A DNA stretch of 60,337 nucleotides from Candidatus Thermofontivivens primus (GCA_031458695.1 JAVKJW010000014.1:1-60337), one strand, 5' to 3'; numbered from the stretch's first letter, positions 51,024-60,337 are shown. Notes: generated from the letters alone by a model not told the origin. Program-made: numbers and translations.

Positions 51024-52118
<1,095 letters not shown>

Positions 52119-52820
52119 TCATGCCAGGAGCGCGTGCTCCCGGAAACTATAGAATTGTCCATCGCCCAGGATGATGTGGTCAACCACCTTGATCCCCACG
52201 ATCTCCCCCGCAGCTTGGAGTTGCTCGGTAATCCGCATATCTTCCCGGCTTGGCTCCGCTTGGCCCGAAGGGTGGTTATGGACGAGAACGACCGCAGCAG
52301 CACTCTTCCGGATCGCTTCTTTAAACACCTCCCTGGGGTGGACCGTCGTGGCGTTCAAGCTCCCGACGGAGATGTTCACGATACCCAGCACGCGGTGCTT
52401 GGTGTCCAGGAGGATCACCCGGAAGTGCTCCCGGTCCAACATGCGCATCTCGGGCATCAGAAGCCGGGCCACGTCATGGGGAGAACGGATCGCGGGGCGA
52501 GGGGTGGGTGGCGCGGTGAGTAACCGCTTTCCTAGCTCCAGGGCTGCGACAACCCGGACCGCTTTGGCTGGCCCGACCCCTTTCACGGAAAGGAGATCCG
52601 CGACCTTTGCCTTGGCAAGCTGGTCGAGAGAGCCAAAGCGGGAGAGCAATTCCTCAGCTAGATCAAGCGCTGTACGTTGTGGCGTTCCCGATTGCAACAG
52701 GATTGCCATGAGCTCGGTCGTAGAAAGCGTCTCGGCACCAGAGCGCAAGAGCCGTTCTCGAGGTCGAATCTCCTCTGGAAGCTCCTTTAGCGTTAACTTC
52801 CTTTGGAACTCCAAGGTCAC
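52119..52820 (-). CDS. radC: RadC family JAB domain protein
   Basis: RPRERL, HhH GVGPAKA, VHPREVF, HNHPSG...S..D. Confidence 0.95.
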   Translation of the reverse strand: MTLEFQRKLTLKELPEEIRPRERLLRSGAETLSTTELMAILLQSGTPQRTALDLAEELLSRFGSLDQLAKAKVADLLSVKGVGPAKAVRVVAALELGKRLLTAPPTPRPAIRSPHDVARLLMPEMRMLDREHFRVILLDTKHRVLGIVNISVGSLNATTVHPREVFKEAIRKSAAAVVLVHNHPSGQAEPSREDMRITEQLQAAGEIVGIKVVDHIILGDGQFYSFREHALLA

Positions 52821-53409: not shown

Positions 53410-53589
53410 TCAGCGGTCCTCATCCCGGGATGCGCTCTTCAGCTCTTCCTCTGTCTCCTTAACCGCTCCCCGGAACTCCTTGATCGCCTTCCCCAGCGCA
53501 CCCCCGATGCCGGCAAGCCGGGCAGGACCAAAGATCAACAGGGCGATAACCAGAATGATGATAAGCTCCTGCGTACCTAACCCGAACAT
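53410..53589 (-). CDS. tatA: Twin-arginine translocase TatA
   Basis: MFGLGTQELIIILVIALLIFGPARL...GKAIKEFR; ATG 53589 after GGAGG. Confidence 0.93.
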   Translation of the reverse strand: MFGLGTQELIIILVIALLIFGPARLAGIGGALGKAIKEFRGAVKETEEELKSASRDEDR

Positions 53590-53684
53590 GGAGCCACCTC
53601 CTGCCCTATTATACCTCGGCGTCCAGACCCTTACCAGAAGGAAAAACGACACGTGACCATGGGGCGATGTCCCAAGAAGACCCA

Positions 53685-54653
53685 TTACTCCTGGAGTCCT
53701 AGTGCCCAGCGCAGCGTCTCGTCCAGTGGACGCGGCGTGAGGCCGAAGGTCTGGTAGGCAGGGGCGGGATCGCAGACATTGTCCAGAAGAAGCGCCTCAA
53801 ACTCCGCGGAAGTGATGGGAGGATTGGAAAGGATGCGCTCCCCGGCTCGCACGAGGAACCAAGAGAGGGAGAGGGGGATGTGAACCTTATAGCGATGCTT
53901 GCGCAGGATCTGGAGGAGCCGGTCGAGCAAAGAGCTGTATGTTACCACCTCCGGGCCTCCGAGATCGAACTCCCGGCCCACCACGTCCTCTCGCTCGACC
54001 GCCTGGATCACGCACCTGATCACATCCCGCAAGTCGATGGGCATAGACCGGTAGGTCCCGTCCCCAAGTACGGGGATCAAGGGGAGGAGGTCAGCCAGGC
54101 GCTCCAGGAGCGGGCTTTCGCCGACCCTGAGGATGAACGGGTAGAAGGGACCATACCGGGTGAGTGCAAGGAGCTGTGCTAGCGCGCCCCCTCCAGGGCC
54201 GAAGATCAACGAAGGGCGGAAGATGGTATAAGGAACCGCTCCTCTCCTCACGGCTTCCTCACCGCGCCACTTCGAGGCTAGGTACCGACTCGGGGCTACG
54301 GGAGAAGCGCCCAGCGCGCTCAGGTGAATCAGTTTTCGCACGCCGCAGCGGTGGGCAGCGGAGACCACTGCCTGGGTCCCAAGGTGGTTGATAGCTTCGA
54401 AGGTATGGGGGCCCCGCTCCCGGATGATGGCCACAAGGTGGACGACCACGGAGCAACCTTGAAATGCCCTTTCCAGGGAAACTTCATCCCGGACATCGGC
54501 TTGCACTCCTTCGATCCCCAGCGAACGAGCCCATGTCTCCCCCTGCGACGAGTGAACCACGGCGCGGACGGGTATGCCGCGTTCTCGCATAACGCGGAGG
54601 AGGTTCCTCCCTACAAATCCGCTGGCCCCGGTGACAGCAATCATGGGAGGCAT
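53685..54653 (-). CDS. NAD-binding atypical SDR, complex I NDUFA9-like
   Basis: VTGASGFVG, HLSALGA, YLASK, FRPSLIFG. Confidence 0.85.
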   Translation of the reverse strand: MPPMIAVTGASGFVGRNLLRVMRERGIPVRAVVHSSQGETWARSLGIEGVQADVRDEVSLERAFQGCSVVVHLVAIIRERGPHTFEAINHLGTQAVVSAAHRCGVRKLIHLSALGASPVAPSRYLASKWRGEEAVRRGAVPYTIFRPSLIFGPGGGALAQLLALTRYGPFYPFILRVGESPLLERLADLLPLIPVLGDGTYRSMPIDLRDVIRCVIQAVEREDVVGREFDLGGPEVVTYSSLLDRLLQILRKHRYKVHIPLSLSWFLVRAGERILSNPPITSAEFEALLLDNVCDPAPAYQTFGLTPRPLDETLRWALGLQE

Positions 54654-54767: not shown

Positions 54768-55796
54768 CTATCTTACTCGGCTGGTCACGAATTCGGTCAG
54801 TTCCATCAAGCTCCGCTTTGCCCGGCTCTCCGGGAGGATGCGAAGGGCTTCCGCAGCCCTCTCACTGTAGGAACGGGCAATATCCAGCGCGGCTGGGATC
54901 GCGTTGTACCGATCGAGAACCATGCGGATCTCCTCCAACCGGCCCTCGGGCTCCTGGAGGAGGCGCCGGAGCCTGTCCTGGTCGGAAGGCGTTCCCTCCC
55001 GGAGGGCGATGATCATAGGAAGGGTGATCTTTCCTCCATGGATGTCGCTCGCGATCGGCTTCCCCAGGACCTCAGGCGAGCTCGTCAGGTCCAGTGTATC
55101 GTCCACAATCTGGAAAGCCATCCCCCAGTTGAGACCGAAGGTAGCCAGAGCTTCCGCTTCCTCTAACGGAGCCCCGGCGACCAGGGCTCCGGCCCGGCAA
55201 GCAGCCGAGAACAGGCGGGCAGTCTTCCCCTCAATGATCTCGAAGTAGACCTCCTCGTCTGTATGGGGGACGCTCCCCATCTTGATCTGCTTGATCTCTG
55301 CCTGGCTCATCCCAACTGTCGCGTAGGCCATTGCGGGCGCAACCAGCGGATGGCTCACCCGCGAGAGGAGGTGAAAGGATTTGGCAAAGAGATAATCCCC
55401 CAGGAGAACGGCCACTTGGTTCCCCCAGCGCACATGCGCCGTGGCTGTACCACGGCGCATGTCCGACTGGTCGATGATATCATCGTGGATCAGGGAAGCC
55501 ACGTGGATGAGCTCGACGGCCCCGGCGATGTACAGGCGCTCCTCCCCTGCTCCTCCGCACGCCTGGGCTGCGAGGAAGACGAGGGCCGGCCGTACCATCT
55601 TCCCGCGTGTGGAGAGAACGTGGTGGACGAGTTGCCCGATGAAGACATCGTCGGATTGCAGCTCTTCCAAGAGGAGGGAGTTCAGCCTCTCAAGGTCGCC
55701 TGCAACAGGCTCGTAGATTGCAGCAAGATCCACCCCGTTCACCCCTGGGCGTCCTTCATAGGACGGATCCTCCGGCTCCTCAGAGCTCCCTGGCAA
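54768..55796 (-). CDS. Polyprenyl diphosphate synthase (HepT/IspB-like)
   Basis: GKMVRP, HDDIID..RRG, GDYL, KTA, FQIVDDTLD. True start probably ~55742. Confidence 0.93.
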   Translation of the reverse strand: MPGSSEEPEDPSYEGRPGVNGVDLAAIYEPVAGDLERLNSLLLEELQSDDVFIGQLVHHVLSTRGKMVRPALVFLAAQACGGAGEERLYIAGAVELIHVASLIHDDIIDQSDMRRGTATAHVRWGNQVAVLLGDYLFAKSFHLLSRVSHPLVAPAMAYATVGMSQAEIKQIKMGSVPHTDEEVYFEIIEGKTARLFSAACRAGALVAGAPLEEAEALATFGLNWGMAFQIVDDTLDLTSSPEVLGKPIASDIHGGKITLPMIIALREGTPSDQDRLRRLLQEPEGRLEEIRMVLDRYNAIPAALDIARSYSERAAEALRILPESRAKRSLMELTEFVTSRVR

Positions 55797-55858: not shown

Positions 55859-56230
55859 TCACTCTGAGACGGTGAGTGTGGCCTCCATGCCAGCTTCCTG
55901 GTGACCGGGGAGATTACACACAACCTTGTAGGTCCCCGGTTGGAGAGTCACCTCCAGCTTCTTCGTCTCCCCCGGCGCAATCTTGTCGACCTCCCCAACT
56001 CCTTCGATCACGAAGTTGTGCTCTACGGCGCCCTGGTTCTTGATCACAAAGGTAACCTTCCCTGGTTTTGCACGGATCTCCTTCGGTTGGATCGACCACT
56101 CGTTCTCGGTAATCGCGATCTCACCCGCTGCCGATGGTGCTGGGGCAGGTGGCTGGGCCTGCTGGCGTGCGCAGGCTGCGAGCAGCACAAGGGCGGCGAC
56201 AGCGAGGATCGTGGCGCGAACAAATCGCAT
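55859..56230 (-). CDS. Cupredoxin (type-1 blue copper) lipoprotein
   Basis: Lipobox LLAAC, EHNF and VCNLPGHQEAGM copper ligands (H, C, H, M); start ATG 56230. Confidence 0.88.
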   Translation of the reverse strand: MRFVRATILAVAALVLLAACARQQAQPPAPAPSAAGEIAITENEWSIQPKEIRAKPGKVTFVIKNQGAVEHNFVIEGVGEVDKIAPGETKKLEVTLQPGTYKVVCNLPGHQEAGMEATLTVSE

Positions 56231-56273
56231 CGTCCTGTTCCTCCTTTCTATGATGAGAGTACATAGCCCTGTC

Positions 56274-56390
56274 TCAAGCTTCGGCGATGAGCCCAAACGA
56301 GGCCACGAGCAAGAGGAGGGCGAAGAACACGATGTAGAAAAGGGCATAAGCCAAGATCGTCCCTACACTCTTCCGCCGGATCATCTCCAT
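56274..56390 (-). CDS. Putative 38-aa single-TM protein
   Basis: Manual translation MEMIRRKSVGTILAYALFYIVFFALLLLVASFGLIAEA; basic N-terminus plus hydrophobic helix; upstream TATAAT. Confidence 0.55.
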   Translation of the reverse strand: MEMIRRKSVGTILAYALFYIVFFALLLLVASFGLIAEA

Positions 56391-56450
56391 CACCTAGGGT
56401 ACTTTCCATTATTATAATGCTCGACGGTTGAAAGGACGCCCCTTGACGTT

Positions 56451-56491
56451 GTCCCCAGCGGAACCTTGTCAAGAGATTTCGTTGGGGCTGC
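56451..56491. repeat. Hairpin-A copy of interspersed repeat overlapping the 3' end of the mvhD-like gene
   Basis: CCCCAGCGGAACCTTGTCAAGAGATTTCGTTGGGGCTGC. Confidence 0.65.
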
Positions 56492-56957
56492 TTTGCTGAG
56501 CGGCCCTCGTCACCGCCTGGCCTCCTGGCACGACCCGCCTGCGCAGATCCTCCAGGAAAGCCTTGATCGCCAAGAGGAATCCCTCCCGATCATGCAGCCC
56601 ATAAGCCAGCATCGTTACCCGCTCTGGATCGATCCTCTGACGCTGGAGGCGGCGGCGCATCTGCTGGATCCTGTTCCTGATGAGAAAATTCCCCTCCCGA
56701 TTCAGGCAGTCCCCATACGGGCACCCGCAGACAAACACTCCGTCAGCTCCGTTCTTCAGGGCGAACTCCAGCCAGGAGGGCCGGATGAACCCCGAACAGG
56801 GGATCATCATCACGTAGACGTTCGGAACCTCCCGGAGCCTCCCGTCCTCCGTGAGCGCACCTTTGAGATCCACGCTCCAGTCGCAGACAAACCCTACCAC
56901 CTTCAGGGTGGGCTTTTCCTGGGATTGCAGAGAGGAACTGTGCTCTAGCTCCGACAT
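56469..56957 (-). CDS. MvhD/FlpD-like [2Fe-2S] protein
   Basis: GFVCDWS, IPCSG, GADGVFVCGCPYGDC...GN Cys pattern. Confidence 0.85.
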   Translation of the reverse strand: MSELEHSSSLQSQEKPTLKVVGFVCDWSVDLKGALTEDGRLREVPNVYVMMIPCSGFIRPSWLEFALKNGADGVFVCGCPYGDCLNREGNFLIRNRIQQMRRRLQRQRIDPERVTMLAYGLHDREGFLLAIKAFLEDLRRRVVPGGQAVTRAAQQSSPNEIS

Positions 56958-58102
56958 GCTGCCAGCACCCTTTCAAGCACTTGATTCTCCATCAAACGAG
57001 GGAGTTCTAAAGCCTGGAACGGGCAAGCGCCAATGCAGATGCCGCATTCTACGCACCGCGACTCAATCACCACGGCAAGCAGCTTGCGGTTCTGCGCTGC
57101 TTTGGTCTGCCCAGGCCTTGGCGAGGGGACCATGATGATCGCGTTGTAGGGGCAGTCATAGTAACAAAGCTCGCATCCCGTGCAGTTCGGCTCAATGACC
57201 TGGGCTACCCCTGCGTGACGGACGCCCATGACCTCCGGCTTCTCCCGGAGTTGGTAAGGGATGTACATTCCATAACTGAACAGGACGAACCCGAGCACGA
57301 TCGCCCAGATCGGTCCAACGTACTTCAGCAACCAGTAAGGCCACATATATAAGAAGTCGAGGGGGATCACCTGCGGCTGTGCCGTGGGGGAGGCGGGCAC
57401 CCCGCTCACCACAGGCACGAGGGAACTGAGGAGAAAGACAAGCCCCAGGCTGAACAGCACCCAGACCGCCGGTGGCCAGATTTTGGGGTGACGGATGCGG
57501 ATATAATGCCACCAGAGCAGGAGGTAGAGGGTCACGGCGGGGACCACGTGGAGGAAGAGAAAACGCACGAGGGTGCGTTCGCCGACTCCCCCTCCTCCCA
57601 GGAGGAGCTCGTTGAGCCACGGGCCAACAAGCGGGATCGACCGAAGCATATGCAGGGTCATTGCCAGGAGGGCCTGCGCCCGGTCGTCCCACGCCATGAA
57701 GTATCCGGTGATTCCCACGAACCCAGCGAAGCCAAGGAGGAACATCCCGGAGATCCAGGGGATATCCCGGGAGAAAAGGTAACGCTCCGTGAACCAGTTC
57801 CGGAAAAGGTGGAGGAGGATCGCTACCATGAACCCATCGGCGGCATAGCGGTGAACCCCGCGGATGATCCTCCCGTACGGGACGCGCTCCGTGATGAAGG
57901 TGATGGAGCGGTGGGCCTCGTTGGGATCCGGCACGTAGTAGAAGAAGAGAAAGATCCCTGAAAGGATCAGGATGGTCAGGAAGAGGTTCGACAGCCCTCC
58001 AGTGTAATACAACGGGTTCCAATCAGAAGGCAGAACGCGGTTGAGCAGGACATCCACTTGGAGGGTGGCTCGCTGCAAGTTCTTCAGGATGCGCTTGTAC
58101 AA
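56945..58102 (-). CDS. Cytochrome b fused to C-terminal 2x[4Fe-4S] ferredoxin domain
   Basis: RGVH-x13-H and FLH-x13-H heme ligands, TGY, degenerate Qo motif IPLDFLY, CTGCELCYYDCP and CVECGICIGACP. Confidence 0.88.
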   Translation of the reverse strand: MYKRILKNLQRATLQVDVLLNRVLPSDWNPLYYTGGLSNLFLTILILSGIFLFFYYVPDPNEAHRSITFITERVPYGRIIRGVHRYAADGFMVAILLHLFRNWFTERYLFSRDIPWISGMFLLGFAGFVGITGYFMAWDDRAQALLAMTLHMLRSIPLVGPWLNELLLGGGGVGERTLVRFLFLHVVPAVTLYLLLWWHYIRIRHPKIWPPAVWVLFSLGLVFLLSSLVPVVSGVPASPTAQPQVIPLDFLYMWPYWLLKYVGPIWAIVLGFVLFSYGMYIPYQLREKPEVMGVRHAGVAQVIEPNCTGCELCYYDCPYNAIIMVPSPRPGQTKAAQNRKLLAVVIESRCVECGICIGACPFQALELPRLMENQVLERVLAACRS

Positions 58103-58166
58103 CCTCCCTTTCCTCCTTCGTGCTGTGCCAGATTGCCGCGGGGCCCGGTACGGGGCATTCGCAACC

Positions 58167-58355
58167 TCACTCCTGGATCCATCGCCCCTTCCGGAGAATG
58201 ATCAGGATCAATCCATAGGCCAAGAAGATGATCCCAAGGGAGGCTCCGACAACGAGCTGCTTTCTGGAGAACTCCCCGTAGACAATCGCCCCGCTCGCGG
58301 CGGCGACGATCGCAGACAGCACCAGGATCAGACCCAACAGCTTCCCCTGCGTCAT
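58167..58355 (-). CDS. Small two-TM membrane protein (62 aa)
   Basis: MTQGKLLGLILVLSAIVAA...LGIIFLAYGLILIILRK; ATG 58355 preceded by GAGGTAAGGAG. Confidence 0.65.
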   Translation of the reverse strand: MTQGKLLGLILVLSAIVAAASGAIVYGEFSRKQLVVGASLGIIFLAYGLILIILRKGRWIQE

Positions 58356-58359
58356 CTCC

Positions 58360-58620
58360 TTACCTCTGCGTTCCCCGAGCCCGGATCCACCACTCATACA
58401 GCCGGAGGGGCCGTCGCACCCTTCCAGCCCTGCGATCTACTTCGTAGAGGGTAAACCCCAGGTACAGGAAGGAAACAAAAAGGGCGGCGACAACGATTGC
58501 TGCACGTGCCCATGCTTGGACAGTCCCTCTCGCCAGCGCCTCCTCCACTGCCCCGATCAGTCGAGAAAGGGCGAGAACAGCAATCAGGAAGGTGAGATAA
58601 AACCATAGATGCCGCCACAT
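58360..58620 (-). CDS. Small two-TM membrane protein (86 aa)
   Basis: Two hydrophobic helices, basic C-terminus, upstream RBS and promoter. Confidence 0.65.
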   Translation of the reverse strand: MWRHLWFYLTFLIAVLALSRLIGAVEEALARGTVQAWARAAIVVAALFVSFLYLGFTLYEVDRRAGRVRRPLRLYEWWIRARGTQR

Positions 58621-58643
58621 CTTTGCTCCCCTATCCTCCCCCC

Positions 58644-58672
58644 ATCATAGACACAACCGCACCATCGTTCAA
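58644..58672 (-). promoter_or_regulatory. Putative internal sigma70/A promoter
   Basis: TTGAAC-N17-TATGAT between the first cytochrome b gene and the 86-aa gene. Confidence 0.5.
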
Positions 58673-58696
58673 GGGGTTTTCTCTGGACGACCTACG

Positions 58697-59836
58697 CTAC
58701 TCCGAGGCCGGGTTCTCGGCAGGCTTCGGCGAAGACACGAGCTGTCCAAGCTGTCGCCTCCGGTAGCGGATCTCCCAAAGGAGTCCAAGTGCAAGGACCA
58801 CGACGGTGATGGCTAGGATGATTGGTGGATCGCGCTCGATGACAGCGATATTGAACAGAATCAGGACTGTGAACACAAGGAAGTAGACGAGGGCCATGAT
58901 CCCCACCACGGTAAAGAAGGGACGCTCCGAAGGCCGTCTCCCTTTGCTCCTATCCAGAAAGGGGACAAGCATCCCGAAGGCGATGAGCAACCCCGGCCCA
59001 AGACCAGCCCACAGGGGCGGCGTGTACTTGACGAACTGGTAGAGGGCCAGGAAGTACCAGTCCGAGAGAATAGGAAGGGGCGTCCGGTCTGGGTTAGCTC
59101 TCCTCCCCAGTTCCGCTGGGAGGAGGTAGCTGATCGCGGCGAGCATGAGGAAGAAGACCAGGACACTTGCAAGCGACATATTCAACCGCTTGCGCCGGGT
59201 CCGCTGGAAGAAGATCTCCGTGAGGATGAGGGCAATCACAGAGATGCTGAAATGGATCATATAGAACCTGGTGAGGGTTGCCTGGCCGATGGCCGGGCCC
59301 CCGAGGAAGATGTAAGCGATAGCGGAACCAAACCTCGTCTGCCCAATGAGGGGGAGCTCGTCAAAGTAGATGGGGACCGTGAGCACGACCTTGGCCGCCC
59401 AGAAGGCACGCTGGTTCCAGATGAGGAGATAGCCTGTGATCCCAGAAATCATCGCCAGGATCAGCGAGGCGAACGCGATCATCCAGGAGAGCTCCCCTGG
59501 CTTCTTGTACTCCCCCAGGAAGTACATACGGTAGATGCGCAGGGTAATGGCGATGATCAAGGCATCAGCGCCGTACTTGTGGAGGCCGCGGATCAACCAG
59601 CCAAGAGGGATCTCGTGCTGGATGTGCAGGATGGAGTTGTATGCACCGGCAGTGGTGGGCTCGTACCAGATCATAAGGAGGAGACCACTCACGATGGTGA
59701 TGAGCCAGAAGTAGTACACCATCGGGCCGAGGAGATAAAAGGGATTCCCCTGTCTATGGACGTTGGTCTCGTCAAAGAGATCGAGGTGTTCCTTCCGGTC
59801 TTTGATCCATTCCCCAACGACTCCCAACTTTCCCAT
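58697..59836 (-). CDS. Cytochrome b (b6 + subunit IV-like fusion) of a Rieske/cytb complex, lacking heme bH ligands
   Basis: GWLIRGLH, TGYLL.W.Q, TLTRFYMIH, ANP..TP..ILSDWYFL (Qo-like); the second His of helices B and D is absent. Confidence 0.9.
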   Translation of the reverse strand: MGKLGVVGEWIKDRKEHLDLFDETNVHRQGNPFYLLGPMVYYFWLITIVSGLLLMIWYEPTTAGAYNSILHIQHEIPLGWLIRGLHKYGADALIIAITLRIYRMYFLGEYKKPGELSWMIAFASLILAMISGITGYLLIWNQRAFWAAKVVLTVPIYFDELPLIGQTRFGSAIAYIFLGGPAIGQATLTRFYMIHFSISVIALILTEIFFQRTRRKRLNMSLASVLVFFLMLAAISYLLPAELGRRANPDRTPLPILSDWYFLALYQFVKYTPPLWAGLGPGLLIAFGMLVPFLDRSKGRRPSERPFFTVVGIMALVYFLVFTVLILFNIAVIERDPPIILAITVVVLALGLLWEIRYRRRQLGQLVSSPKPAENPASE

Positions 59837-59880
59837 CCACCTCCCTAACTAGGGAAGCTTTTCACGCCTCGGGGGATCCT

Positions 59881-60337
59881 CTAGGCGATCCCACCGGGCT
59901 CCACGTCGGTGATGACAATGTCCCCCTCCTTCACCGCAAACAGGAAGGTCCGAGGAGGTCGCGGCGCTGGACCGGAGAGGACCCTCCCTGGGACATCGGG
60001 ATCGGCAGGATCATAGATGCTGAGATGGCATGGGCAGCCCATGAGCGCATGGCGACGATCCGGGGGCGGAACATAGCCTCCATACCCAGATGTGATCTCC
60101 TTCCACTCAGGAACGTAGTTGAAGATGCACCCGAGATGGGGACAGATGCGCGAGAAGGCGACGATATCGCTCTCCTTCCGCTTTTCGCCCGCCCACTCCC
60201 AGGGAAGGACAACCTTCCTGGGGAGGCGGATGACGACCCCTGGAACGGTGGCGTTCTTGAACCCTTCAGGCGTGTACTGGGGATACTGCTGGACGAAGGT
60301 AAAGTACTTGTAACTCCAGGGCTCCCGAAGCTCAGAG
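59881..60337 (-). CDS. Rieske [2Fe-2S] protein, N-terminus outside window
   Basis: Manual translation ...FSRICPHLGCIFNY...MGCPCHLSIYDP...SGPAPRPP...GGIA*. Confidence 0.93.
   Translation of the reverse strand, partial: SELREPWSYKYFTFVQQYPQYTPEGFKNATVPGVVIRLPRKVVLPWEWAGEKRKESDIVAFSRICPHLGCIFNYVPEWKEITSGYGGYVPPPDRRHALMGCPCHLSIYDPADPDVPGRVLSGPAPRPPRTFLFAVKEGDIVITDVEPGGIA

Follow-up and report, generated by a model that had tools for sequence, protein, structure and literature searches.

A Rieske/cytochrome b operon with two unlike cytochromes b and an associated iron-sulfur arm in Candidatus Thermofontivivens primus

Positions 55,859 to 60,337 of a 60,337-nt stretch of DNA from Candidatus Thermofontivivens primus (GCA_031458695.1 JAVKJW010000014.1:1-60337; the whole stretch is called the window below) carry an operon on the minus strand that encodes a Rieske protein, two different cytochromes b (cytb-1 and cytb-2) and several iron-sulfur (Fe-S) and membrane parts. 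The window is contig C6 of a 2.61-Mb, 96%-complete metagenome-assembled genome (MAG) of the phylum Ca. Sysuimicrobiota (CSP1-3), in which 94 genomes were tallied and 68 related loci examined. The initial annotation had listed a co-oriented set of Rieske protein, cytb-1, two small proteins, cytb-2 fused to a ferredoxin domain (cytb-2::Fd), an MvhD-like protein, a transmembrane peptide and a cupredoxin, and all of these are present on the minus strand (Table 1). Pfam and NCBIfam scans bear out every named family in the operon; the three small membrane proteins gave no family match in these scans.

Table 1. Genes of the operon, in window coordinates, beginning at the window end
Feature	Position	Strand	Basis and remarks
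Rieske [2Fe-2S] protein, C-terminal 151 aa	59881-60337	-	5' end open at window end; Pfam Rieske
cytb-1, 379 aa; long cytochrome b with b6 and subunit-IV parts fused	58697-59836	-	Pfam and NCBIfam
Small membrane protein, 86 aa, two predicted helices	58360-58620	-	Hydropathy
Small membrane protein, 76 aa, two predicted helices	58167-58397	-	Open reading frame and hydropathy; 38-nt overlap with preceding gene
cytb-2::Fd, 385 aa; six-helix cytochrome b with C-terminal 2x[4Fe-4S] ferredoxin domain	56945-58102	-	Pfam
MvhD/FlpD-like protein, 162 aa, presumed [2Fe-2S]	56469-56957	-	Pfam FlpD
Single-helix membrane peptide, 39 aa from GTG or 38 aa from next ATG	56274-56393	-	Hydropathy and tblastn
Type-1 copper (cupredoxin) lipoprotein, 123 aa from MRFV start, lipobox Cys	55859-56230	-	Pfam

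The first cytochrome b, cytb-1, matches the Pfam families Cytochrome_B (112 bits) and Cytochrom_B_C (34.6 bits), and its best match to a solved cytochrome b6 has an E-value of 6e-35. Alignment to cytochrome b6 places His at both positions that ligate the low-potential haem (bL), an Arg at the helix-B position of the high-potential haem (bH), and no His at the helix-D bH position. The bL residues H86 and H195 are invariant in the 54 complete CSP1-3 cytb-1 sequences, as are R100 and E207 at the former bH site and the stretch PILSDWYFLxLY at the quinol-oxidising (Qo) site, in agreement with the initial description of a protein with a Qo-like ILSDWYF motif and only the two bL His. All 39 orthologues from other phyla keep the bL pair, an Arg or Lys at the helix-B bH position, the Glu and the SDWY, making the SDWY Qo motif invariant over 54 + 39 sequences. 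In helix A, the second Gly of the GG pair, which provides room for haem bH, is relaxed in cytb-1, and the haem-ci Cys of the CxGG motif is absent, with Leu (L35), Ile or Thr at that place. Among the 39 other-phylum sequences only that of Symbiobacterium retains a His at +14 in helix D. This cytb-1, from a Symbiobacterium thermophilum MAG (L098:6176-7255), keeps the His in a helix-D VEMH, has the Arg in helix B and reads RIYSDWYF in the Qo context instead of PILSDWYF; it may represent an intermediate state of haem loss.

The second cytochrome b is 31% identical to the first over 268 residues, with ef-loop motifs that align (SDWY with LDFL; D259 with D249). cytb-2 matches Cytochrome_B (98.5 bits) and, at residues 296-372, Fer4 dicluster models; its best match to a solved cytochrome b6 (E 2e-28) aligns all four haem His. 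These residues, H84, H98, H185 and H199, are invariant in 68/68 cytb-2 sequences, and seven of the eight cluster Cys are invariant as well, with C313 present in 67/68. The helix-A GG is invariant; the haem-ci Cys is absent here too, helix A reading YTGG with Y33 in 67/68. The Qo region has clearly degenerated: the motif reads IPLDFLY (LDFL) in our sequence and D[VW]F in relatives, only Asp249 (67/68) and Pro255 are fixed in the ef loop, the Qo Trp is kept in 26/68 sequences, and the Tyr has mostly become Phe. Thus, the alignment of both proteins to the b6 reference upholds the haem-ligand assignments of the initial annotation, and its picture of cytb-2 as a four-His protein with a degenerate IPLDFLY and a 2x[4Fe-4S] domain is confirmed by this alignment and by the Fer4 matches. 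The four His expected of a bc1/b6f cytochrome b are found in every cytb-2 (68/68) and incomplete in every cytb-1 (54/54), although the whole complex could still have a full bL-bH path. The haem and Qo features of the two proteins, invariant in 54 cytb-1 and 68 cytb-2 orthologues, lie far beyond chance.

Within the phylum the two genes travel together. Each is found in 81 of the 94 genomes and both in 79; the tally includes the unpublished G017 and G025, which both belong to the class with both genes. Neither cytochrome b was detected in 11/94 genomes, among them all 8 of one genus, and the discordant cases are four fragmented assemblies, with cytb-1 lacking cytb-2 in just two of them (G011 and G054). 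cytb-1 lies upstream of cytb-2 in 61 CSP1-3 loci, the remaining 7 having less than 1.3 kb of upstream DNA, and the two genes are adjacent in 61/61 CSP1-3 and 39/40 other-phylum loci with enough upstream DNA. The pairing from which the initial annotation started therefore holds in other genomes, and the search for a conserved neighbourhood recovered the same gene order in CSP1-3 and in other phyla.

A HMMER scan of 1.84 billion representatives with cytb-2 returned 248 clusters at E ≤ 1e-30, comprising short forms of ~370-420 aa with 37-45% identity and many long forms. Outside CSP1-3, short-form loci were examined in 44 records, by title from Deinococcales, one Symbiobacterium thermophilum MAG and Melainabacteria/Vampirovibrionia, with a few labelled Gammaproteobacteria. 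Their operon is the same, with genes for a c-type cytochrome, Rieske protein, cytb-1, small open reading frames (ORFs), cytb-2::Fd, MvhD and often the 39-aa peptide. Of the 44 loci, 39 have cytb-1, and four of the other five have no upstream DNA. The only short-form locus with sufficient flank that lacks both partners comes from a Vampirovibrionales MAG (L102), where 8 kb of upstream DNA contain neither cytb-1 nor a Rieske gene; in the same locus (L102:8001-10021) the MvhD match lies ~630 nt after cytb-2 and not directly behind it. The complementary losses, of the bH ligands in cytb-1 and of the Qo motif in cytb-2, are conserved over four phyla.

The ferredoxin domain of cytb-2 most probably faces the cytoplasm. 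The N-terminus of cytochrome b lies on the n-side in all solved cytochromes b, and since an even number of helices follows it and no signal peptide is present, the Fe-S arm is predicted to be cytoplasmic. The gene directly behind would extend this arm: its product matches the Pfam family FlpD (PF02662) with 91.8 bits against a cut-off of 22.3, and we take it, from the Mvh-Hdr structure, to bind a [2Fe-2S] cluster. The Cys residues C25, C79 and C84 are invariant in 64 MvhD sequences and C54 is found in 63/64, the other row reading X. MvhD follows cytb-2 in 68/68 CSP1-3 loci, and in our operon the start of its gene overlaps the cytb-2 stop by 13 nt. It is a separate gene here and in all short-form loci, and fused in long forms: among 15 sampled relatives, 12 of them long forms, 7 carry FlpD behind Fer4 in single-chain cytb::Fd::MvhD fusions. 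The gene overlap, the invariable adjacency and the natural fusions together argue for MvhD as a subunit. As a different general role for this protein we considered docking to the genome's Mvh-type [NiFe] hydrogenase or to HdrA; this was rejected because those systems own an MvhD and because no hydrogenase gene lies in the operon.

Further small subunits are likely. The gap between the two cytochromes b holds two hydrophobic small ORFs in 57/61 CSP1-3 loci and 2-4 of them in 39/39 other-phylum loci, and the two membrane proteins encoded there are probable accessory subunits. The 38/39-aa membrane peptide, with tblastn matches at the same position after MvhD in 31/68 CSP1-3 and 20/44 other-phylum loci, is likewise a probable small subunit.

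On the high-potential side, the window end cuts the Rieske gene, and the truncated protein scores 21.9 bits, just above the Pfam cut-off of 20.3. With an overlap of 141 nt at the window end, contig C25 carries the Rieske N-terminus (L003:3-392) with a twin-arginine translocation (Tat) motif, RRTFLK, and a membrane anchor. Directly upstream of the Rieske gene, outside the window, lies a gene for a membrane-anchored dihaem cytochrome c (L003:332-1207; two stretches matching Pfam Cytochrom_C). The Rieske boxes CPHLGC and CPCHLSIY, with the disulfide Cys pair, are invariant in 53 orthologues. The operon Rieske protein keeps the Ser and Tyr after CPCH, whereas the second Rieske protein of the genome reads CACHDGHY, with Gly at that place. 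In bc1 Rieske mutants this Ser and Tyr are tied to a higher potential, and the comparison suggests that the operon protein has the higher potential of the two.

Wherever the flank reaches, both partners are found, the Rieske gene in 53 CSP1-3 loci (and in 38/44 other-phylum loci) and the dihaem c gene in 52 CSP1-3 loci, with both CxxCH motifs in 49/49 sequences. The cupredoxin is a good family member (Cupredoxin_1, 58.7 bits; Copper-bind, 38.4 bits), and its copper ligands H71, C105, H110 and M115 are kept in 26/26 sequences and the lipobox Cys in 25/26. Its matches are restricted to 25/68 CSP1-3 loci, a lower bound given the short downstream flanks of some loci, and to 0/44 other-phylum loci. 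Hence the path from Rieske to cupredoxin that the initial annotation had drawn does not describe the conserved arrangement: the dihaem cytochrome c beside the Rieske gene is the conserved outer partner, and the cupredoxin is an optional extra, by its sequence a putative lineage-specific periplasmic electron carrier. Since the genome holds two MqnA/D genes, the quinone of the organism is probably menaquinone.

The genome encodes other respiratory parts. It contains four COX1 genes, and coxAB is reported in over 90% of CSP1-3 MAGs (PMC11962464). A third cytochrome b, on contig C4, has four His and a PEWY motif, and its gene follows a separate Rieske gene and precedes one for a multihaem cytochrome c; in this cluster (L087:12185-15076) the Rieske boxes read CTHLAC...CACHDGHY and the multihaem cytochrome c has 431 aa. 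At E ≤ 1e-50, this canonical PEWY type is found in 36/94 phylum genomes, and in family f6 it occurs in 0/12 genomes, with the two-cytb genes in 12/12. Because the operon includes Rieske and dihaem c genes, four COX1 genes are present and the canonical cytochrome b is patchy, the two-cytb complex is probably a main respiratory enzyme, and probably the main quinol:cytochrome c route in most of the phylum.

We propose that the operon encodes a variant Rieske/cytochrome b complex of the complex III type, with an asymmetric core from which the low-potential electron exits to the cytoplasm; taken as a whole, we give this proposal an even chance of being right. One asymmetric complex is the best account of the data because the complementary degeneration is conserved, cytb-1 retaining only the Qo site and cytb-2 the full bL-bH path. 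The two proteins would form a heterodimer with three b haems. Menaquinol would be oxidised at the single well-kept Qo site, on cytb-1, its first electron passing from the Rieske cluster to the membrane-anchored dihaem c and on to the haem-copper oxidases; in this lineage it could also reach the blue-copper lipoprotein. The second electron would go from haem bL of cytb-1 to haem bL of cytb-2 (bL') and further to haem bH of cytb-2 (bH'), a crossing that would be compulsory since cytb-1 lacks a bH haem, and from there over the two [4Fe-4S] clusters and the presumed [2Fe-2S] cluster of MvhD to a cytoplasmic acceptor. The outward-to-inward flow through the Fe-S arm and the identity of its acceptor are the most tentative parts of this scheme. 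Bifurcation at Qo would thus pay for the reduction of a cytoplasmic carrier, instead of or besides that of quinone at the quinone-reducing (Qi) site, and the loss of bH from cytb-1 would be explained because all Qo electrons are funnelled into a single bH tied to the Fe-S arm.

Individual steps of this scheme have precedents. Engineered bc1 dimers with cross-inactivated halves, which rely on bL-bL transfer, are reported to support growth (PMC4152375), and the bL-bL crossing is described as competent in such dimers (PMC4152375, PMC4330944). For the Rieske/cytochrome b complexes of anammox bacteria, quinol-driven NAD(P)+ reduction has been proposed, together with high-potential Rieske proteins; there, the combination of a high-potential Rieske protein with menaquinol is argued to push haem bP to ~ -475 mV, which would make NAD(P)+ reduction feasible (PMC12954380).

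Several observations weigh against an exit through the Fe-S arm or against an obligate pair. The inward electron step opposes the membrane potential, and also the redox potential if the clusters are ferredoxin-like; the operon contains no gene for a cytoplasmic acceptor; and cytb-2 may have a Qi site. The predicted structures add little: AlphaFold2 on cytb-2::Fd with a 41-row alignment gave a mean pLDDT (predicted local distance difference test) of 62.5 and a pTM (predicted template modelling score) of 0.57, with the Fe-S domain below 50. A complex prediction of MvhD against cytb-2 plus cytb-1 reached a median score of 0.54, with 0.00 for the best of 3 controls, 84% or more of the contacts shared between runs and a partner pLDDT of 69 or more, which counts as weak support. 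The pass mark of this procedure is reached by 116/157 solved complexes and 2/215 mismatches, and scores up to 0.60 are held by only 18 of the 157 solved complexes plus both passing mismatches, so that a docking pass at this level is more often wrong than right unless the interaction was likely beforehand. From the structural modelling foreseen in the initial annotation, the docking of MvhD was thus obtained at weak support, and the single-chain model proved too poor for cofactor distances or a fold search; the tie between MvhD and cytb-2::Fd is borne out by the fusions in many relatives.

A further objection comes from the long forms. The 80 long-form loci examined belong to Proteobacteria (among them Gallionella, Zetaproteobacteria and Bradyrhizobium), Nitrospirota and Rokubacteria, and none of them (0/80) has a Rieske match or a cytb-1 orthologue within 7 kb. 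As the module is present there, and in L102, without these partners, cytb::Fd::MvhD can work alone. One Gallionella relative is fused to an FNR-like NAD-binding module, which equally fits the entry of electrons from the cytoplasm: a 646-aa cytochrome b with a Fer2/FAD/NAD module is a neighbour of the Gallionella long form. Together, the stand-alone relatives that lack a Rieske protein and the FNR-like fusions are at least as compatible with electron entry as with exit. Finally, Kao & Hunte (PMC4122944) report that Pyrobaculum has a one-haem cytochrome b with no known partner. Some long-form loci have surroundings of their own: cytb::Fd::MvhD lies beside a divergent COX1-like gene and SCO1/SenC (Gallionella MAG, L184:2690-9288; L160:4352-9148), and a conserved ORF of 217-227 aa follows, with an Lcl_C match in Gallionella and no assignment in L160. 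We considered deriving the function of our operon from these neighbours and set this aside, as they are suggestive and not transferable.

Reversing the arm would meet the thermodynamic objection. In the same asymmetric complex, electrons from a cytoplasmic reductant (ferredoxin, an HdrA-type or another flavoprotein) would enter over MvhD and the [4Fe-4S] clusters to bH, join the electron from Qo and, at a Qi site in cytb-2, reduce menaquinone. An input from ferredoxin to haem cn has long been proposed for cytochrome b6f, and the arm would be a hard-wired counterpart of it; Dibrova et al. 2017 (PMC5600118) summarise the idea that ferredoxin feeds b6f at centre N. Such a flow is thermodynamically downhill, it suits the stand-alone long forms, which have no Rieske protein to drive an uphill exit, and the genome has sources of low-potential reductant in HdrA/MvhD systems and a 2-oxoacid:ferredoxin oxidoreductase, the latter read by eye. 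However, entry leaves the loss of bH and Qi from cytb-1 in four phyla unexplained, no conserved His or recognisable Qi residue follows the bH His across the family (positions +5/+6 vary), and the haem-ci Cys is absent (Y33/L35). We regard electron entry as possible yet somewhat unlikely.

The candidate reductant systems lie on other contigs. The end of contig C50 (L089:2106-6430) encodes an HdrA-like protein of 668 aa and a CCG-domain protein, and one MvhD gene is divided between the end of C50 and the start of C4 (L087:1-2969), two contigs that probably join; the two ORFs after the split MvhD (335 and 521 aa) are presumably the small and large subunits of an Mvh-type [NiFe] hydrogenase. Contig C14 (L088:551-9952) carries a 1133-aa HdrA::Fer4::MvhD fusion followed by an HdrB/C-like CCG protein; by eye, the ORFs before the fusion look like the putative 2-oxoacid:ferredoxin oxidoreductase and two after it are EtfAB-like.

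The independence of the long forms raises a further option, in which the operon encodes two separate enzymes: a quinol oxidase without a Q cycle made of Rieske protein, cytb-1 and dihaem c, and a homodimer of cytb-2::Fd/MvhD connecting the quinone pool with Fe-S chemistry in the cytoplasm, in the manner of NarI/HdrE-type dihaem anchors. This accords with the 80/80 long-form loci and L102 and with the gene clusters of Kao & Hunte, described as lacking a Rieske protein (PMC4122944), and the near-invariant ef-loop Asp of cytb-2 (67/68) could serve a quinol site of its own. Yet a cytb-1 homodimer would hold bL haems only and leave the second electron stranded without an outlet, cytb-1 is found without cytb-2 solely in the fragmented assemblies G011 and G054, and the genes keep a constant order over four phyla, in which two small membrane proteins separate the cytochromes b. 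On balance, we consider two enzymes distinctly improbable. That the operon encodes an ordinary complex III, with the second cytochrome b and the Fe-S parts as regulatory, assembly or redox-sensing accessories outside the catalytic path, would suit its probable place as the main quinol:cytochrome c route in most of the phylum and the absence of an acceptor gene from the operon, but is very improbable given that the twelve cluster Cys and four cytb-2 His are invariant or nearly so across sets of 68 and 64 sequences and kept in other phyla, and that cytb-1, without bH or Qi, makes cytb-2 not dispensable for turnover.

An exit of the low-potential electron through the Fe-S arm can be taken one step further. 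The enzyme may be a Rieske-based, quinol-driven bifurcating reductase of a ferredoxin-like low-potential carrier that is at the same time the main complex III of several phyla, an extension that we regard as unlikely. The second electron of every menaquinol would then leave over bL, bL', bH', the two [4Fe-4S] clusters and MvhD, and would return to the quinone pool via a separate energy-conserving enzyme, for example an NDH-1-like complex without NuoF. Two NuoD-type genes (contig C1, 69653-71728 and 135426-136163) and a single NuoF were noted in the genome, which seems to encode a second NDH-1-like complex without the NADH-binding module. If true, this would amount to an 'extended Q cycle' over two enzymes and to a direct path along which aerobic respiration supplies autotrophy with ferredoxin-level reductant.

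Beyond the dihaem c gene, contig C25 continues upstream with CcmE, CcmC, CcmB and an ABC ATPase, and a 547-aa ORF upstream of the Ccm genes (L003:4194-5837, minus strand) had no Pfam match at E ≤ 1e-5. At the other end, 62 nt separate the cupredoxin from a downstream gene for a polyprenyl diphosphate synthase (window 54768-55796, likewise minus strand), which may be transcribed together with the operon and supply the quinone side chain. A TatA gene follows ~2 kb downstream of the operon (window 53410-53685, minus strand), the Rieske protein of which carries a Tat signal, and after it MreB and RadC genes (window 51024-52820).

Two RNA-library runs of one study (X8 and X10) contain six short contig pieces, of 155-360 nt, that map to the operon and lie on the genes for the cupredoxin and the 39-aa peptide, on the starts of MvhD and cytb-2, and on the junction of cytb-1 with Rieske; stretches without a piece carry no information. 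From X8 come three pieces at 99% identity or above and one at 95-99%, and both pieces from X10 are at least 99% identical; five have 0 differing letters, and a gap of 9 nt is present in the X8 piece at 56135-56434. As DNA can be present in such libraries, these contigs are at most a weak hint of operon transcription. The X8 contig has its 9-nt insertion at window 56416, in the spacer between MvhD and the 39-aa peptide gene, and run X4 has a DNA contig with 12 differences from the window in 5.3 kb; these two contigs represent strain variants.

By its parts, the complex is a member of the Rieske/cytochrome b superfamily in which one subunit falls outside the four-His, homodimeric description. 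Complex III is textbook-symmetric. With the canonical bc1, b6f and Firmicute menaquinol:cytochrome c reductases, the operon shares the Rieske boxes, the b6/subunit-IV fold, a Qo-type ef-loop motif, a c-type cytochrome partner and small hydrophobic subunits. In contrast to the canonical homodimer, it has two unlike cytochromes b, of which cytb-1 lacks both bH ligands, whereas cytb-2 has six helices, a degenerate Qo site and a C-terminal 2x[4Fe-4S] domain; MvhD is present, the haem-ci Cys is not, and the Qo motif is SDWY instead of PEWY or PDWY. Neither Kao & Hunte 2014 nor Dibrova et al. 2017 names the SDWY variant in the main text (0 occurrences).

Whether bL-bL crossing occurs naturally, and whether Qo bifurcation serves anything beyond the Q cycle, are long-standing questions that have been addressed with engineered mutants and by unproven anammox proposals. 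At least four phyla share the operon as a natural and strongly conserved design, in which electrons appear obliged to cross from bL to bL and cytoplasmic iron-sulfur clusters would be attached to the haem chain at its inner end. An exit arm would be a new way for respiration to make low-potential reductant; an entry arm would hard-wire the ferredoxin input that is debated for cytochrome b6f. In both cases, 'complex III' should be annotated differently in Sysuimicrobiota, Melainabacteria, some Deinococcales and Symbiobacterium, and cultivated Symbiobacterium may make the complex testable.

Descriptions of related arrangements cover single elements. Matheus Carnevali et al. 2019 list PetB and PetC in Melainabacteria, with no mention of two cytochromes b or of Fe-S parts in the available text, and the main text of two CSP1-3 genome papers contains no Rieske, complex III, bc1, MvhD or cupredoxin. 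Literature searches for Rieske with cytochrome b and MvhD/FlpD, for heterodimeric cytochrome b and for bH-ferredoxin did not find the arrangement described. The statement of the initial annotation that tandem degenerate cytochrome b pairs had been noted in surveys could not be confirmed; according to its available text, the survey of Kao & Hunte 2014 dropped every sequence lacking any of the four His before analysis (PMC4122944), and cytb-1-type proteins therefore could not appear there. The cytb-FeS fusion was noted in 2014; no description was found in which it is paired with a Rieske protein and a one-haem cytochrome b.

The fusions in that survey form the 'PDWF-FeS' clade, in which the cytochromes b of Magnetospirillum and Turneriella bear MvhD and a 4Fe-4S domain, while a protein of Alicycliphilus has ferredoxin and flavin domains; no Rieske protein is reported in these gene clusters (PMC4122944). 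The clade is probably 'subfamily H' of Dibrova et al. 2017 (PMC5600118). It shares with our operon the cytochrome b with 4Fe-4S domain plus MvhD module and, in most relatives, the DWF-type ef-loop motif, and full-length HMMER matches of cytb-2 to PDWF-FeS-like proteins show 29-37% identity at ~E 1e-63 to 1e-37. Unlike the clade, our operon has MvhD as a separate gene, a Rieske gene and a one-haem cytochrome b partner. Loss of a bH ligand is shared by the one-haem cytochromes b of Pyrobaculum and of the one-haem-like cyanobacterial subfamily K described in Dibrova et al. 2017 (PMC5600118), the latter also with regard to the helix-1 haem-accommodating Gly; for these, the available text reports no pairing with a four-His, Fe-S-fused partner.

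The anammox complexes R/b-2 and R/b-3 (Kuste4569-4574 and Kustd1480-1485; PMC12954380) are described as having, like our operon, a Rieske/cytochrome b core wired to Fe-S clusters on the cytoplasmic side, and they share the idea of a low-potential electron sent to a cytoplasmic acceptor, the menaquinone-type setting and an apparently high-potential Rieske protein. As reported, they differ in being modelled as homodimers and in having haem cn, a proposed extra interface haem and an FAD/NAD(P) reductase subunit; neither our operon nor its upstream continuation encodes a flavoprotein. Conversely, a predicted heterodimeric core, an MvhD end-piece and the absence of a haem-ci motif set our operon apart, and in both systems the mechanism is a proposal. 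The engineered cross-inactivated bc1 complexes, finally, are laboratory constructs of a homodimer in which electrons are reported to cross from bL to bL and reach the other bH; our operon would represent a natural, fixed version of this crossing with a different exit.

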